This document shows positions 8,260 to 15,299 of a stretch of 24,000 bases of DNA, in pieces (position 1 is the first letter of the stretch; each line of letters begins with the position of its first letter). This stretch comes from an uncultured Methanomicrobiales archaeon (GTDB lineage Archaea > Halobacteriota > Methanomicrobia > Methanomicrobiales > Methanospirillaceae). Position numbers and translations under genes: made by a program. The notes beneath the pieces were generated by a model, which worked only from the letters and a program-made list of their open reading frames with translations, searched no databases and had not been told where the DNA came from. The stretch is taken from the NCBI GenBank assembly GCA_903926075.1, contig CAIYHQ010000110.1, positions 22,026 to 46,025 on the forward strand. The letters are read 5' to 3'.

Positions 8260-8658
8260 ATGCGCATAAGTGGAAGAAGCATCGCACGCGGGCATGGAAA
8301 AGGAGAAATACTCGTTAGTCATGAGCCAATCTCATTTCTTTCCGGGGTTGATCCTGATACAGGTACAATAATTGAGAAGGGAAATCCTCTTGAGGGGAGA
8401 TCAATTACAGGAACGGTTTTTGTATTCCCTGAAGGAAAAGGATCAACAGTAGGTTCATATATCCTCTATGCACTGGGGAAAAACGGTCATGGACCTGCAG
8501 CGATAATTAACCGCGATACCGAACCTATTGTTGCAGTAGGGGCTATAATTGGAGGAATCCCACTTGTCGACCGTCCGGACGTCCCGTTTTCAGCTTTCAA
8601 AAATGGAGTCATTGCTGAGGTAAATGGAGATACAGGGGAGATAATTCTCTTTTTATGA
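8260..8658 (+). CDS. Aconitase-X small (swivel, DUF126) subunit; probable phosphomevalonate dehydratase small subunit
   Basis: 132 aa. G.GKGEILVS.EPISFLSGVDP.TG.I.......EG.SI.G.V.VFP.GKGSTVGSY.LY......GP.AII matches the DUF126/AcnX small-subunit pattern. This family acts in the modified archaeal mevalonate pathway. Confidence 0.65.
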   Translation: MRISGRSIARGHGKGEILVSHEPISFLSGVDPDTGTIIEKGNPLEGRSITGTVFVFPEGKGSTVGSYILYALGKNGHGPAAIINRDTEPIVAVGAIIGGIPLVDRPDVPFSAFKNGVIAEVNGDTGEIILFL

Positions 8659-8710
8659 ACAAGGATATGTTTCATATTTTATAAATAGAAGTTCTTCTGA
8701 TTGAAGAGGT

Positions 8711-9256
8711 ATGGACAACTTGGCTGATTTGGTTGGAACAGTTGCGGGACTCATGACAATCTCTGCGAGAACCGCCCCTAAAGCTAAAGGAATTGATATG
8801 CTTTCATACCGGATACTGATGGGTGAAGATCTGATTAAACTGGCTGCCGAAGTTAAGCGATATGGAGAAGAAATGCATCTGAACTTTTTTTTAAGGGATG
8901 CAAAAAACATTGAGAGTTCTGATGCCTGTGTAATTATCGGACTTAATTCAAAAAGTATTACCGATTTAAACTGCGGAGCATGCGGATTTGCCAGATGTGA
9001 AGATATGCAGAATGCGCCCACTTTTACAGGTGGTCCTTTCAGTGGACCAAACTGCCAGGTAAGGGTTACTGATCTGGGAATTGCCGTAGGTTCGGCGGTA
9101 AAGACCGCACAAATGCATAATATTGACAACAGGGTGATGTTTACTGCAGGTGTAGGTGCAATAAAACTGGGATTTCTCCCTGGATGTAACATGGCGTACG
9201 GCATCCCCCTTAAAGCCGGAGGTAAGAATATTTTCTTTGACAGGATACAAGGATAA
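8711..9256 (+). CDS. DUF2148-like protein with a Cys cluster (ferredoxin-domain-containing protein, COG4739-like)
   Basis: ARTAPKAKGID...NCGACGFARCEDM...GPNCQ...GSAVKTA fits my recollection of DUF2148. The antisense 183-aa ORF is rejected. Confidence 0.6.
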   Translation: MDNLADLVGTVAGLMTISARTAPKAKGIDMLSYRILMGEDLIKLAAEVKRYGEEMHLNFFLRDAKNIESSDACVIIGLNSKSITDLNCGACGFARCEDMQNAPTFTGGPFSGPNCQVRVTDLGIAVGSAVKTAQMHNIDNRVMFTAGVGAIKLGFLPGCNMAYGIPLKAGGKNIFFDRIQG

Positions 9257-9260
9257 TGCG

Positions 9261-10334
9261 ATGACTGTTATGAAGATACGCGGGGGAGATCTTGACCTTG
9301 TTGAATACCATTTTACGTCATTTCTCCCTGGTGAAATAATCAATCCTCTCCCTACAGAGAAAAAAATAACATTGACACCAAAAAGTGGCAAGGTAACCGC
9401 CGAAGCTCCAGCCAGGATACACCTCACTGTCCTTGATATGAACCGGTTCTCACCTCGACGTCCTGGAGGAGGCGGAGTGGGGTTTGCAATACAACTTTAC
9501 TCAAAAGTTGAAGTTTCGTGTACAGAGAATGATATAGAGATAGATTATACTCGTCCGGGAATTCTCACTCATCTGGCCTTTGTTATGAAGAAAATAACCG
9601 GGTACAAAGGCGGATTTAGAATAAAAGCTTACGAACATGAGCACACCCATGTGGGACTTGGTTCGACAAGTACTGTAATGACCGCGAGCGCTCTTGCAAT
9701 GAACCACATACTTGGAGAGCCACTCTCCAATTCAGAAGTAAGAAATTTAATCGGATATAATTATGTTGAGGAAACTGAGGAAGGAAAAGTAATCTTCGGG
9801 TTTGAAACCGGTGTCGGGCCTGCAGTCTGTTCTCTTGGGGGAATGGCAGTTATGGGCGATGAACTGACGCTTATTTTCCAGCATCCTTTTGCTTTTGGAA
9901 AAAATGTGTTTATTGTAATCCCTCCAATCGTCATTTCTTCTTCAGGCGAGCATGAGTTTGATCTCCTTATGAACAGAGCGAGATCCCTTGATTATCGTGA
10001 CAGGGAGTTAAAAGCCTATATGATGATGATGGATTTAATCCCTGCTCTTGAAAAAGGAGATCTGAAAAAGATAGGCGAAGTTATTTGGGAAACAGAGTTC
10101 AGAGGCTCAAAAAGGGCTGAGATCGAGCACCATGGATTTGGCATTTACCAGTATATGGCAAAGATGCGCGACTCCGGACTAGAATTTGTAGGTATGAGTT
10201 CAGTAGGGCCATCAATAGCAATTGTTACTGAACGGACAGAGGAGGAGGTCGGAAAGATTATTGAAAAAATTGGTCTTTCAATTACAATTGCAACAAAGGT
10301 CGATAATACAGGTATTATAATAAAATCCGGTTAG
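9261..10334 (+). CDS. mptG: Beta-ribofuranosylaminobenzene 5'-phosphate (beta-RFAP) synthase, first committed step of methanopterin biosynthesis
   Basis: GHMP-kinase-fold signature (APARIHLTVLDMN..., GLGSTSTV). Length and N-terminus are typical of archaeal RFAP synthases. ATG 9261 is preferred over the track start TTG 9237. Confidence 0.75.
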   Translation: MTVMKIRGGDLDLVEYHFTSFLPGEIINPLPTEKKITLTPKSGKVTAEAPARIHLTVLDMNRFSPRRPGGGGVGFAIQLYSKVEVSCTENDIEIDYTRPGILTHLAFVMKKITGYKGGFRIKAYEHEHTHVGLGSTSTVMTASALAMNHILGEPLSNSEVRNLIGYNYVEETEEGKVIFGFETGVGPAVCSLGGMAVMGDELTLIFQHPFAFGKNVFIVIPPIVISSSGEHEFDLLMNRARSLDYRDRELKAYMMMMDLIPALEKGDLKKIGEVIWETEFRGSKRAEIEHHGFGIYQYMAKMRDSGLEFVGMSSVGPSIAIVTERTEEEVGKIIEKIGLSITIATKVDNTGIIIKSG

Positions 10335-12322: not shown

Positions 12323-12895
12323 TTAAAGAGATGAAAACCCAAGATAATTCATTAATAATTTAAGAGCCTCCTGCTCTCCTGGTCCACCACATCGCCTGAC
12401 AATCGATGCATGATGGATAATTAACTTTTTTAATTCTATGTCCTTATTCATGAGGAAACGTGTCCCGTGTACCGATGCTTCGATTATGCTATTGAAACCA
12501 CGGTTTATAGGGCGAATTCGGTTTTCGAGAATCTCTTCCTTTAGAGGTTGAAGATTTATTACAACAGCATTTTCAGTCTCTTTTTGAATAGTAGTACGAA
12601 ATGCAATCCAGGCATCTGTATTAACAAGACGATCTATGTTCAATCCATCAACAACCTCATCTTTTAGAGAGGATGCTTCCAGATCAGAGAAGGCGGTCTT
12701 CACATAGATGCAGGGGTCATAACTAATGTTTGCAACAACCCAGCCTTCCGACCTCACCCGTTCAAACGTGTGTGTCCCCCGAAACAGGATCATTTCAAAT
12801 GAATTATCTTTCCTGATAACGCCTATTGGTGCGGCATTTCCTTTGGTCGTTGCAATTACTTCATTAATTCCTTCATTCAAAATTCCCAATTCCAA
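12323..12895 (-). CDS. DUF447 family protein (H4MPT-biosynthesis-linked, biochemical role unassigned)
   Basis: N-terminus GINEVIATTKGNAAPIGVI...FRGTHTFERV...GWVVANIS fits DUF447. It overlaps the upstream CitG-like gene by 19 nt. Confidence 0.65.
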   Translation of the reverse strand: MELGILNEGINEVIATTKGNAAPIGVIRKDNSFEMILFRGTHTFERVRSEGWVVANISYDPCIYVKTAFSDLEASSLKDEVVDGLNIDRLVNTDAWIAFRTTIQKETENAVVINLQPLKEEILENRIRPINRGFNSIIEASVHGTRFLMNKDIELKKLIIHHASIVRRCGGPGEQEALKLLMNYLGFSSL

Positions 12896-13707
12896 CCCTC
12901 CCCCAGAGCCAGATATATCCCTGCAATAATTAGATCTGCTGTTGATCCAGGGTTAATGTGTTTACATATGCACCACTCATCAAAATCCTCTATAGAATAA
13001 ACACCTTTAATAACTTCATTTGCCTTTTTAAGGACCTCATATGCAGTATCTTTCCCGTGTTTCTTCTGAATAAATGTATCAGGTTCAAGAGCAAGGAGCG
13101 AGATAAAAGCGGATGTTATTGCACAACGACCTGTGCCGGAAGAAAGTATGAGATCGCGTGCTCTCCCTGTCAAAGGAAATCCGTTCACCCATTCACGCGC
13201 AATCATGTCATTCTCTTTTGAGTGCTGCATAATATCAAAAAGAGTCAGTCCCTCTCTTTCGATTGCTTCAACTGCGCCTGGGTCGTTTACATCGATAGAA
13301 TCGCTGGGCAATATCCTGACTTCTGTGAGGCCGAAGGCCTTGTAAAAAAAAACAGCATCTTTAACTGTTGTATTACGGACCAGATAGTACGCCTCCTTAA
13401 GATCTGATGTACGCATTAGTGGAACGAGAAGCAGAAATGCACCGAAATGCGTATTACCTCCATTATGGCGGTGTGTTGTTTTAACGAGCCGGTATAATTG
13501 TTCTCCAATGGAATAACCTGAATATAGAACTTCATCAAGTGCAGGTCGTGCAAAAATTATGGACGCGAGGAAATGTTCAAGTTTTGTGCCTTCATAGTCA
13601 TGACAGCGGTCAACATTCCCGGGTTTTGGATATGCCGTCACCTCAAGGACCATTGCGAGCTGGGCCTGTTCAGCTTTCGTCTGGAATTTCGTCTTTTGAA
13701 AAGACAT
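12877..13707 (-). CDS. Triphosphoribosyl-dephospho-CoA synthase (CitG/MdcB)-like protein, H4MPT-linked paralog
   Basis: LEVTAYPKPGNVDR..D...T...F..S and GGNTHFGAFLLL match CitG family motifs. Confidence 0.75.
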   Translation of the reverse strand: MSFQKTKFQTKAEQAQLAMVLEVTAYPKPGNVDRCHDYEGTKLEHFLASIIFARPALDEVLYSGYSIGEQLYRLVKTTHRHNGGNTHFGAFLLLVPLMRTSDLKEAYYLVRNTTVKDAVFFYKAFGLTEVRILPSDSIDVNDPGAVEAIEREGLTLFDIMQHSKENDMIAREWVNGFPLTGRARDLILSSGTGRCAITSAFISLLALEPDTFIQKKHGKDTAYEVLKKANEVIKGVYSIEDFDEWCICKHINPGSTADLIIAGIYLALGEGWNWEF

Positions 13708-14818
13708 AATCGAGAATTTTTTCTGAAAGTTCCTGCTTCATCTTCATATACCGAGCCATTGGAATTTTTTGTTCCTTTAACACCATATCGCGAAACATAC
13801 AGGGGGATGAATCTTTACAACACCACGAAAGGCTACCAAAACAAGTCTCTTTCCCTTTTTCGAGTTGTGTACCTTTTACAAGCTCACTTTTTAGGTCCAT
13901 ATATTCGCGTGGAGATAGGTGAATCCTCTTTAAAAACGGCATAAGAGGGCACTCCTTCACCGGCATGCAACAAAATGCAAGTGCCCTGATATCTCCTCCC
14001 CTGCAGAGTTGTTTAGGAGCGTTGTACCATCCATGGCCTTGGGCATTACTTCTGGCCCATTCATCAAGTGTTGATAGTGTATTTACATCAGAATGGCGCG
14101 CGACAGATACCAGGTCTGCTCCATGTGACAACATTTCTTTCATCACATGCGGTGTGTTAATCGAGTTATTTGCTATGAGGGTCATTGGTACACTGTTTCG
14201 TATCTGCCTGATGCGCTGATAACCAAAATCCATCAGGTCTACATGACAAATATCTACCCCTTCCTTCCAGAGTGACTTTGCAAGCAGACTATCATTTTGA
14301 CTTACTCCTGCGCGTATCTTTACTGATACTGTAACTCCCTCCCTTTTTAAGGCTTTTATAATCTCTCTAAGTTTTTCAGGGTGGGTGAGGAGATATTCGC
14401 CGCTTCCTGCCCTGATAAATGCTTCCTGCCTGCAATGCGCGTCTATCTCATAGATTATCTTGTCACCAAGGGCGAAAACAGCCTCAAGAAATGGTTCCGG
14501 ATTGGTTGCACGCAAATTAAATCCGGTAACTACTCCACTGCCCTGCATTGCACCAGCCTGTATTGATATTTCATCAAAAGGCTCGTCTGGCAGAAATTCA
14601 GCTCGTCCGCTATCTGCAAGCTCGCGTCCTGCTGCAATAGTTGCGGTATCAATCGAGTAACCCCCGAGGAATGCAGCTCCAATGTGTTCTTTTCTCTCCA
14701 GAGCATATCGGGCATCTACAATTCCTGCCATGGATGAAAGGGCAACAGGCGTCTTTAGGGTAGTTCCTTCAAGAAGAATGGGAAAATTCCCGGACTCTGG
14801 ATTCATGATTTTATACAT
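13670..14818 (-). CDS. Dus/DHOD-like FMN TIM-barrel protein with C-terminal eight-Cys domain (resembles methanogenesis marker domain 9)
   Basis: PVALSSMAGIVD...GAAFLGG and EIDAHCRQEAFIRAGSGEYLLTHPEKLREIIKALK..GVTVSVKIRAG parallel dihydrouridine-synthase motifs. The C-terminus carries C-x10-FCC-x5-C and C-x6-WCC-x5-C. Confidence 0.65.
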   Translation of the reverse strand: MYKIMNPESGNFPILLEGTTLKTPVALSSMAGIVDARYALERKEHIGAAFLGGYSIDTATIAAGRELADSGRAEFLPDEPFDEISIQAGAMQGSGVVTGFNLRATNPEPFLEAVFALGDKIIYEIDAHCRQEAFIRAGSGEYLLTHPEKLREIIKALKREGVTVSVKIRAGVSQNDSLLAKSLWKEGVDICHVDLMDFGYQRIRQIRNSVPMTLIANNSINTPHVMKEMLSHGADLVSVARHSDVNTLSTLDEWARSNAQGHGWYNAPKQLCRGGDIRALAFCCMPVKECPLMPFLKRIHLSPREYMDLKSELVKGTQLEKGKETCFGSLSWCCKDSSPCMFRDMVLKEQKIPMARYMKMKQELSEKILDYVFSKDEIPDES

Positions 14819-14897
14819 ATTTGTAAGAAGGGGAACATTATTCCTTTCTATTGAACATGTAATAATTTTTAATTGTAATAGTACTACCTTTTAAGAT

Positions 14898-15299
14898 ATG
14901 TCAAAGTCAGGAATGTTACTCGTAGGCCATGGTAGTAAACTCCCTTATAACAAAGACCTTGTTTTGTCAGTAGGAGACCTTATTGCAGAGAAATCAGACG
15001 ATTACATTGTGAGGTGTGCATTTATGAACATGAACACTCCCTCAATTAAAGAAGCTCTAGAGAGTTTTTCAAACGAGGACATTGTTAACATCGTAGTAGT
15101 ACCACTTTTCCTGGCAAAAGGAGTTCATATATTAAAAGACATTCCTGAACTCATTAACCTCCCAGAGGGCCAGACGAAAGGAACGCTCCAGTTAAATGGA
15201 AAAACAATACCTCTTGTGTACGCTGACCCGATTGGAAGTGACCCGCTTCTTGCTGATCTTATGCTCAAGAATGCAAAGGTTGCCCTTTCAGCACTTTAA
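14898..15299 (+). CDS. cfbA: Small CbiX-type chelatase: sirohydrochlorin nickelochelatase CfbA
   Basis: 133-aa CbiX(S) protein (LLVGHGSKLPYNK...VVPLFLAKGVH) sitting directly upstream of cfbE, cfbD and cfbB. Confidence 0.85.
   Translation: MSKSGMLLVGHGSKLPYNKDLVLSVGDLIAEKSDDYIVRCAFMNMNTPSIKEALESFSNEDIVNIVVVPLFLAKGVHILKDIPELINLPEGQTKGTLQLNGKTIPLVYADPIGSDPLLADLMLKNAKVALSAL

Follow-up and report, generated by a model that had tools for sequence, protein, structure and literature searches.

A conserved archaeal operon with candidate genes for the side chains of methanopterin and F420

Methanogenesis relies on methanopterin as its central carrier of one-carbon units and on F420 as its central carrier of hydride. 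To our knowledge, no enzymes have been assigned to the methanopterin ribofuranosyl reduction, to the ribosylation, or to the attachment of hydroxyglutaryl phosphate. Here, we describe a three-gene operon on the minus strand of a 24,000-nucleotide stretch of DNA from an uncultured Methanomicrobiales archaeon of the Methanospirillaceae (assembly GCA_903926075.1, contig CAIYHQ010000110.1, positions 22,026 to 46,025), referred to below as the window. The operon encodes a protein like dihydrouridine synthase (Dus) that is fused to a methanogenesis marker 9 domain (gene 1), a homologue of the triphosphoribosyl-dephospho-CoA synthase CitG (gene 2), and a DUF447 protein (gene 3). Our analysis moderately favors a composite operon, in which genes 2 and 3 form a methanopterin module and gene 1 is a candidate for the F420 side chain, over a single three-step machine.

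The closest described systems concern the same two cofactors. In archaeal F420 synthesis, the source of 2-phospho-L-lactate is ascribed to an unidentified "CofB" (PMC8498797), and no route to this compound is known in archaea (PMC8305020 supplement; PMC8498797). The archaeal CofC and CofD enzymes favor 2-phospholactate and lactyl-2-diphospho-5'-guanosine (LPPG) (PMC8764529). In bacteria, FbiB's C-terminal domain is a dehydro-F420-0 reductase (PMC8498797). A published search for a genomically coupled archaeal dehydro-F420 reductase failed (PMC8305020 supplement), and our own literature search found no paper describing one. On the methanopterin side, methylotroph islands are ordered mch-orf5-orf7-fae and orf19-orf20-afpA-orf21-orf22 (PMC3615186). 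Of these and related genes, orf5, orfY, and orf17, which belong to a 2005 mutagenesis study (Chistoserdova, Rasche and Lidstrom), have been reassigned to methylofuran synthesis, and Orf9, Orf21, and Orf22 are Mfn homologues (PMC8141765). By elimination, therefore, orf7, orf19, and orf20 remain methanopterin genes without an assignment. Our searches found no literature linking DUF447, CitG, or triphosphoribosyl-dephospho-CoA to methanopterin.

A conserved operon whose first gene parts from the other two

The listing of open reading frames (ORFs) reproduces all three minus-strand genes: gene 1 at 13670-14818 (382 aa), gene 2 at 12877-13707 (276 aa), and gene 3 at 12323-12895 (190 aa). Taken as longest ORFs, genes 1 and 2 overlap by 38 nt and genes 2 and 3 by 19 nt, as a first-pass annotation of the window had stated. 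The longer overlap is real, because alignments with homologues begin at residues 6-13 of gene 2 and the next available start codon is M19. The shorter one needs revision. Judged from the sequence, gene 3 more probably starts at the TTG at 12889, with a GGAGG located 7 nt upstream, than at 12895; the gene would then span 12323-12889, and the second overlap would therefore be about 13 nt.

The order of Dus-like-marker 9, CitG-like, and DUF447 genes is kept in 24 of 24 Methanomicrobiales genome loci and in all 52 metagenome loci with room downstream. A gene order kept so consistently is far more than chance would produce. With their overlaps, the three genes make up a genuine co-translated operon, and the earlier description of a tight unit of functionally unassigned proteins is borne out. 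The metagenome scan, run with the family alignment, returned Methanomicrobiales-like loci only, so that it speaks to the conservation of the operon and not to its diversity. A single-protein search of genome contigs likewise returned close Methanomicrobiales relatives only.

Tight linkage in one order of methanogens does not hold everywhere, and the exceptions sort the genes into two groups. In one haloarchaeal genus (g39; two genomes, 99%-complete), the CitG-like gene, DUF447, and the MptG homologue are all missing. The same genomes retain cofD together with a Dus-like gene (57% identical), the two of them overlapping or abutting, and the sister genera have all five genes. This co-loss is a natural experiment that parts gene 1 from genes 2 and 3. 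Loci of a second kind, one of which (that of representative P0172) has relatives bearing NCBI names of Heimdallarchaeota, place the Dus-like gene between cofD and cofC, with neither a CitG-like gene nor DUF447 in the locus. Conversely, a Sulfolobus genome among our controls contains MptG, the CitG-like gene, and DUF447, and no Dus-like gene was found in it. The H4MPT-linked (tetrahydromethanopterin-linked) C1 island of the bacterial plasmid pTB101 of Aquabacterium olei also includes both CitG-like and DUF447 genes, and it has neither a Dus-like gene nor cofD. These patterns run against the proposal of the first-pass annotation that all three proteins catalyze consecutive or complexed steps of H4MPT synthesis.

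Elsewhere in the haloarchaea, cofD, Dus-like, CitG-like, and DUF447 genes form one operon (loci L038, L039, L047, L051, L053, L057, and L058), and the Dus-like gene overlaps cofD. The haloarchaea with this operon also carry an MptG homologue that scores above the family cut-off. Haloarchaea are reported to use folate, not methanopterin. Together with the joint loss in one genus, the presence of these genes suggests that most haloarchaea make some compound derived from beta-ribofuranosylaminobenzene 5'-phosphate (beta-RFAP).

The CitG-like and DUF447 proteins

Gene 2 (12877-13707, minus strand) encodes a CitG-like protein that matches the Pfam CitG family (PF01874) with 214 bits over profile positions 1-284 of 284. 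It misses every cut-off of the CitG and MdcB equivalog models, scoring 38 bits against 272 for TIGR03125, 25 against 477 for NF007503, and 23 against 280 for NF002315, and so belongs to a subfamily distinct from true CitG and MdcB. Its nearest relative in the Protein Data Bank is 3h9p. CitX (PF03802) has no match in this 97%-complete genome; among 14 control genomes, only Escherichia coli was positive. No citrate lyase or malonate decarboxylase gene lies in the annotated stretch around gene 2 (8-19 kb), and MdcG was not searched for. We therefore rejected the reading of gene 2 as the CitG of a citrate lyase, on the missing CitX and the missed cut-offs. Instead, we propose that it acts on the methanopterin side chain as an ATP-dependent triphosphoribosyl transferase.

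Gene 3 (12323-12889, or from 12895 as the longest ORF, minus strand) encodes a split-barrel protein with the Pfam domains DUF447_N and DUF447_C (PF04289, 99.5 bits; PF20766, 59 bits). An AlphaFold2 (AF2) model with a mean pLDDT of 94 superimposes on the structure 2nr4, titled "FMN-bound MM1853" (FMN, flavin mononucleotide), with a TM score of 0.90. Further matches of the model are 2iml and 2ptf, each with bound FMN, and the structure 3b5m from a planctomycete, Rhodopirellula. The FMN-bound relatives are structural-genomics entries from Methanosarcina, Archaeoglobus, and Methanothermobacter. We propose that gene 3 encodes a putative FMN-binding flavin reductase for one step of methanopterin side-chain synthesis. 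A tblastn search of plasmids with DUF447 returned a single haloarchaeal record.

The two genes are widespread and travel together. Our phylum sample comprised 151 genomes, from which 33 loci representing 26 families were fetched, and the controls comprised 14 genomes. Of the 151, 145 have a CitG-like gene, and DUF447 directly follows this gene in about 30 of the 33 family-representative loci; in most, a Dus-like gene precedes it. In one locus (L035), the CitG-like and DUF447 proteins are fused into a single protein of 501 aa. Genes for a DmrX-type flavoprotein with two [4Fe-4S] clusters and for a protein like dihydropteroate synthase (DHPS-like, DUF6513) cluster with the pair in eight loci (L034, L035, L042, L044, L049, L055, L064, and L156), and genes for PHP phosphoesterases do so in several families. 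Among the controls, DUF447, CitG-like, and RFAP synthase searches were positive in the same four archaea, with CitG also found in E. coli. The bacterial island on pTB101 contains RFAP synthase (mptG), mtdB, mch, a RimK-type ligase, the CitG-like gene, and dihydroneopterin aldolase, followed in our inventory by an AfpA-type flavoprotein, a DUF6513 protein, DUF447, MfnB, the fhc genes, fae, and pabB. Taken with the co-loss of both genes and the MptG homologue in haloarchaea, these associations uphold the earlier suggestion that the CitG-like and DUF447 proteins are tied to methanopterin. The wider proposal on all three genes had been staked on clustering in other H4MPT-using genomes: genes 2 and 3 withstand the comparison, and gene 1 falls short of it in bacteria.

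Several neighbors of the pair may also belong to the pathway. A PHP-family phosphoesterase gene lies between the DHPS-like and DmrX-type genes at L035:7506-8171 and L044:7645-8316, and a calcineurin-like phosphoesterase precedes the CitG-like gene in L036; these enzymes are candidates for a dephosphorylation step of the methanopterin side chain. Radical SAM genes flank methanopterin-type clusters at L044:5140-6141 and L042:6896-7909, one of them with SPASM/DUF3463, and could encode pterin C-methylases. The DmrX-type gene stands directly after DUF447 in many other lineages. A tblastn search with the DmrX-type flavoprotein/ferredoxin of L035 found no match, and hence no candidate dihydromethanopterin reductase, in the 97%-complete genome studied here (G000).

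The first-pass annotation had also placed the operon about 2 kb from mptG. The ORF in question (9237-10334, plus strand) belongs to the GHMP/beta-RFAP-synthase family, and it reaches the cut-off of neither RFAP-synthase model (74-77 bits against 113.5 for TIGR00144; 85 bits against 328 for NF040726). The true beta-RFAP synthase gene of this genome, with 354 bits, is on another contig (G000:C42:6109-7074) and is 26% identical to the ORF in the window. We therefore rejected the latter as mptG and regard it as a paralogue. It ends a co-directional set at 8260-10334, behind genes for an AcnX swivel-domain protein and a DUF2148 ferredoxin-domain protein, and a fragment of the same paralogue appears at the edge of locus L003.

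The Dus-like protein, its genomic partners, and the rest of the window

Gene 1 (13670-14818, minus strand) encodes a Dus-like, FMN-type TIM barrel fused to a marker 9 domain, as judged by domain profiles and an AF2 model with a pLDDT of 87.9. The barrel comprises residues 1-262 (14033-14818); within it, the Pfam Dus family (PF01207) matches residues 125-243 with 35 bits, covering part of the model. The Dus equivalog TIGR00737 gives 25 bits against a cut-off of 293, and the MJ0144 family TIGR00736 gives 107.7 bits against 218.7. By these sequence scores, gene 1 is best regarded as a relative of the MJ0144 family rather than a scored member. The nearest solved folds found by Foldseek are DusB, DusC, the Thermus thermophilus (Tth) Dus, dihydroorotate dehydrogenase (DHODH), dihydropyrimidine dehydrogenase (DPD), old yellow enzyme (OYE), and FabK. 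Enzymes of these groups oxidize or reduce a C=C bond that adjoins a carbonyl.

Two alignments (A1 and A2) identify invariant columns at E124, A127, H128, C129, R130, Q131, K167, R169, H192, D194, N217, N218, G233, D235, S238, and R241. The first of these make up a signature, E-x-[ND]-x-HCRQ (residues 124-131; 14426-14449), with Cys129 as the putative catalytic residue; we take this cysteine and its E-x-N-x-H-C motif to lie at the catalytic Cys loop of Dus, class 1A DHODH, and DPD. When 1.84 billion representative proteins were searched with a barrel-domain profile, 71 clusters below 1e-30 made up a compact family, across whose representatives the signature is kept; true Dus proteins score clearly lower. 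Gene 1 is the only member of its family that we found in the genome and the sole Dus-family gene there.

The marker 9 domain (TIGR03277, 160 bits against a cut-off of 96.2) occupies residues 263-370 (13709-14032) and contains two C...[FW]CC-x5-C repeats, with eight cysteines that are conserved in all long forms of the protein. The long form of about 380 aa, with marker 9, occurs at methanogen-type loci. High-GC haloarchaeal loci and L045 have a short form, about 250 aa in length, that lacks marker 9. Neither has the helical tRNA-binding domain of Dus: the short forms stop after the barrel, and here the 8-Cys domain follows. In locus L156 (4001-5259), a separate gene of 163 aa encodes marker 9; it overlaps a short Dus-like gene at the latter's end and matches the domain described here with 108 bits. 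The barrel and marker 9 are therefore a fusion/fission pair, and we propose that the 8-Cys domain is an electron-input module. In a different fusion (P0154, 349 aa), a barrel of the HCRQ type is followed at the C-terminus by a gamma-glutamyl cyclotransferase domain of the GGACT/AIG2-like kind. F420 bears a gamma-glutamyl tail. NCBIfam release 20.0 names these families "RNA dihydrouridine synthase-like" and "marker 9 domain-containing", and literature searches with marker 9, MJ0144, and COG numbers returned nothing useful and no function assigned to either family.

The genomic partners of gene 1 are chiefly F420 genes. Across 12 representative contexts that we looked up, cofD is directly upstream of the Dus-like gene in nine and cofC directly downstream in six, and at the Dus-like/cofC junctions the stop and start codons usually overlap. 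One context (L156) reads cofE, cofD, Dus-like, marker 9, CitG-like, DUF447, flavoprotein. In another (L158:70-1271, on a very AT-rich contig), the gene for GTP cyclohydrolase III, the start of archaeal riboflavin and deazaflavin synthesis, is directly upstream; this pair presumably corresponds to MJ0145/MJ0144 of Methanocaldococcus jannaschii. One of the 12 is solitary, and one, which stands among glycosyltransferases and has no HCRQ motif, is an outgroup. In the genome studied here, cofD is on contig C52, and gene 1 is not linked to it within the window. Each of five genomes tested has one CofD-family gene, which in four is the one inside this cluster. It is therefore the ordinary cofD of F420 synthesis, and we rejected a second, methanopterin-specific CofD paralogue on the same count.

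The Dus-like gene is less widespread than its partners. At E<1e-40, it was not found in 22 of 61 sampled genomes, which fall in nine families, eight wholly without it and one (f8) in which a single genome was negative; five negative genomes rechecked at E 1e-3 gave hits of about 20 bits only. In two genomes without a Dus-like gene anywhere, cofD is followed by the CitG-like gene (L153:8572-10450 in G051; L042:8947-10727 in G011), and DUF447 was not detected at the G051 locus. A scan with the FbiB-C-terminal-type model TIGR03553 matched generic nitroreductases in almost every genome, none of them at the cut-off.

Upstream of the operon, a divergent 79-bp intergenic region (14819-14897) is shared with cfbA (14898-15299), which is followed by cfbE and cfbD, and presumably contains the operon promoter. 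Methanoregula-type loci share this divergent placement of cfbA, and Methanocorpusculum-type loci do not. Downstream, the operon converges on hypE and hypA. The closest relatives of the window proteins are 55-61% identical and are named Methanoregula or Methanolinea. Sequence of this organism is known from freshwater and lake DNA metagenomes only, and it appears in none of the RNA runs listed.

Proposed reactions, rival readings, and relation to known systems

From the gene anatomy, folds, synteny, and co-loss patterns described above, we infer substrates and reactions for each of the three proteins. The CitG-like and DUF447 proteins would serve the beta-RFAP-derived side chain of methanopterin. 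DUF447 would reduce the ribofuranosyl ring of an RFAP-derived intermediate to a 1-deoxyribityl chain, the ribitol 5-phosphate would be removed, and the CitG-like enzyme would transfer a 5-triphospho-alpha-D-ribosyl group from ATP to the ribitol 5-OH with release of adenine, thus applying CitG chemistry to a new acceptor. The alpha-ribosyl logic of this step is that of the general literature on the pathway and the enzyme. In archaea, the triphosphate would then be available for the hydroxyglutarate phosphodiester; in bacteria that make dephospho-H4MPT, it would be hydrolyzed.

Gene 1, by contrast, would act in F420 synthesis as a Dus/DHODH-class FMN ene-reductase that has the conserved HCRQ cysteine and is a partner of cofD and cofC. 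It may reduce the enolpyruvyl C=C bond destined for the F420 lactyl group. Conversion of phosphoenolpyruvate to 2-phospho-L-lactate would best suit an FMN ene-reductase placed between cofD and cofC; reduction of dehydro-F420-0 to F420-0 is the alternative. In methanogens, the 8-Cys marker 9 domain would pass electrons to the FMN. Joined together, these assignments make a full scheme that we offer tentatively: the Dus-like/marker 9 protein as the lactyl-forming reductase of archaeal F420 synthesis with marker 9 as an iron-sulfur or other metal-dependent electron input, and alpha-ribosylation by the CitG-like protein and ring-opening reduction by DUF447 for methanopterin.

Other readings of the operon have to be weighed against this one. 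All three proteins might act in consecutive or complexed methanopterin side-chain steps, with the Dus-like protein reducing the ribofuranosyl ring and DUF447 in some other role or as its flavin partner. The genes are translationally coupled and invariant in order in methanogen lineages, four loci (L035, L049, L064, and L156) have Dus-like, CitG-like, DUF447, and DmrX-type genes in one string, and White's pathway, as generally understood, needs a flavin-dependent reduction. We nevertheless consider this reading unlikely. The Dus-like gene outlasts the MptG-like, CitG-like, and DUF447 genes and stays with cofD, it sits between cofD and cofC in Heimdallarchaeota-type loci, and it is missing from the bacterial island, from the Sulfolobus control, and from eight families that have the CitG-like gene and mostly DUF447 as well. 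A gene 1 that serves both cofactors would accommodate its position at the cofD/citG-like junction in many lineages; it could deliver electrons or reduced flavin both to DUF447 and to the chemistry of the F420 side chain, or act on a shared 2-hydroxyacid or enol-phosphate precursor. F420 (lactyl) and methanopterin (hydroxyglutaryl) both contain a 2-hydroxyacid phosphodiester, and the 8-Cys domain resembles an electron-input module. Even so, the CitG-like/DUF447 module occurs in bacteria and Sulfolobus with no Dus-like gene, and g39 and the Heimdallarchaeota-type loci have the reverse. Each module can therefore work alone, and we regard a dual role as quite improbable.

More improbable still is that gene 1 encodes an archaeal RNA dihydrouridine synthase merely sharing an operon with cofactor genes; we would be surprised to find it so. 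The Pfam Dus and TIGR00736 matches, the Dus enzymes among its nearest folds, and its standing as the only Dus-family gene of the genome all recommend that label. Against it, the scores fall well short of both cut-offs (25 against 293 for the Dus equivalog and 108 against 219 for the MJ0144 family), true Dus proteins rank clearly lower in the family search, and the 8-Cys domain takes the place of the helical tRNA-binding domain. Moreover, the coupling to cofD, cofC, cofE, and GTP cyclohydrolase III persists across phyla.

The composite operon, with gene 1 in F420 synthesis, is the reading that we prefer, and several observations weigh against it. No Dus-like gene was found in eight families (f11, f12, f15, f16, f17, f18, f20, and f22), all of which have the CitG-like gene, and cofD was confirmed in the representatives of f16, f18, f20, and f22, the only ones checked. 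The Dus-like protein therefore cannot be a universal step of archaeal F420 synthesis. Since cofD directly adjoins the CitG-like gene without a Dus-like gene in L042 and L153, adjacency to cofD must partly reflect a mixed cofactor supra-operon. The Dus-like gene stands alone in two lineages (L151 and L154). At Methanomicrobiales, Methanosarcina-type, and Methanocella-type loci, the Dus-like-marker 9 gene is never apart from the CitG-like gene, and this constancy could come from shared function rather than operon inertia. White's work with cell extracts reportedly showed lactate incorporation into F420, which fits the proposed reaction less well, and is said to have named phosphoribosyl pyrophosphate (PRPP), not ATP, as the ribosyl donor.

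With these points in view, the operon supplies small, expressible candidates for several missing steps and pairs each gene with a cofactor to test. If the F420 role of gene 1 is correct, marker 9 gains a function, the label "tRNA-dihydrouridine synthase" on some NCBI and JGI records would be corrected, and heterologous production of F420 would become simpler. Methane mitigation is a further possible use, with these candidates as its targets.

Compared with described enzymes, gene 1 shares its FMN TIM-barrel fold with Dus, class 1 DHODH, and DPD, and its E-x-N-x-x-C loop, V-K-x-R, and N-N/G-D motifs are presumably placed as in those proteins. It differs from them in having HCRQ where they have GCP or SCP, and in having cofD and cofC as genomic partners in place of RNA or pyrimidine genes. 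It differs from Dus, in addition, in the missing helical tRNA-binding domain and, in methanogen forms, the added 8-Cys marker 9 domain. With the C-terminal FMN domain of FbiB it may share a job, that of using FMN to reduce the enolpyruvyl-derived F420 side chain. The folds are unrelated, a nitroreductase fold in the FbiB domain and a TIM barrel in gene 1, and the analogy is one of function only.

The relation of gene 2 to CitG and MdcB (EC 2.4.2.52) is one of family, given the full-length PF01874 match, and probably of chemistry: we predict ribosyl transfer from ATP, loss of adenine, and an alpha-linked 5-triphosphoribosyl product. It departs from them in missing the equivalog cut-offs, in the lack of CitX, and in its family's genomic companions, which are RFAP synthase, DUF447, and DmrX-type genes; its acceptor would be the ribitol 5-OH of a pterin intermediate, not dephospho-CoA. 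Gene 3 has the fold of the DUF447 structures 2nr4, 2iml, 2ptf, and 3b5m, structural-genomics entries without an assigned reaction, of which three of four are FMN-bound by title. HpaC-type flavin reductases match its N-terminal barrel only, with a TM score of about 0.5.

The bacterial islands differ from the archaeal operon in lacking the Dus-like gene, the marker 9 gene, and cofD, in keeping their CitG-like and DUF447 genes non-adjacent, and in a product, dephospho-H4MPT, without the phosphate and hydroxyglutarate. Gene positions on pTB101 match those of the methylotroph islands. There, the CitG-like gene follows mch and the RimK-type gene, the position of orf7 after orf5, and DUF447 adjoins the afpA and DUF6513 genes, as in the orf19 island.

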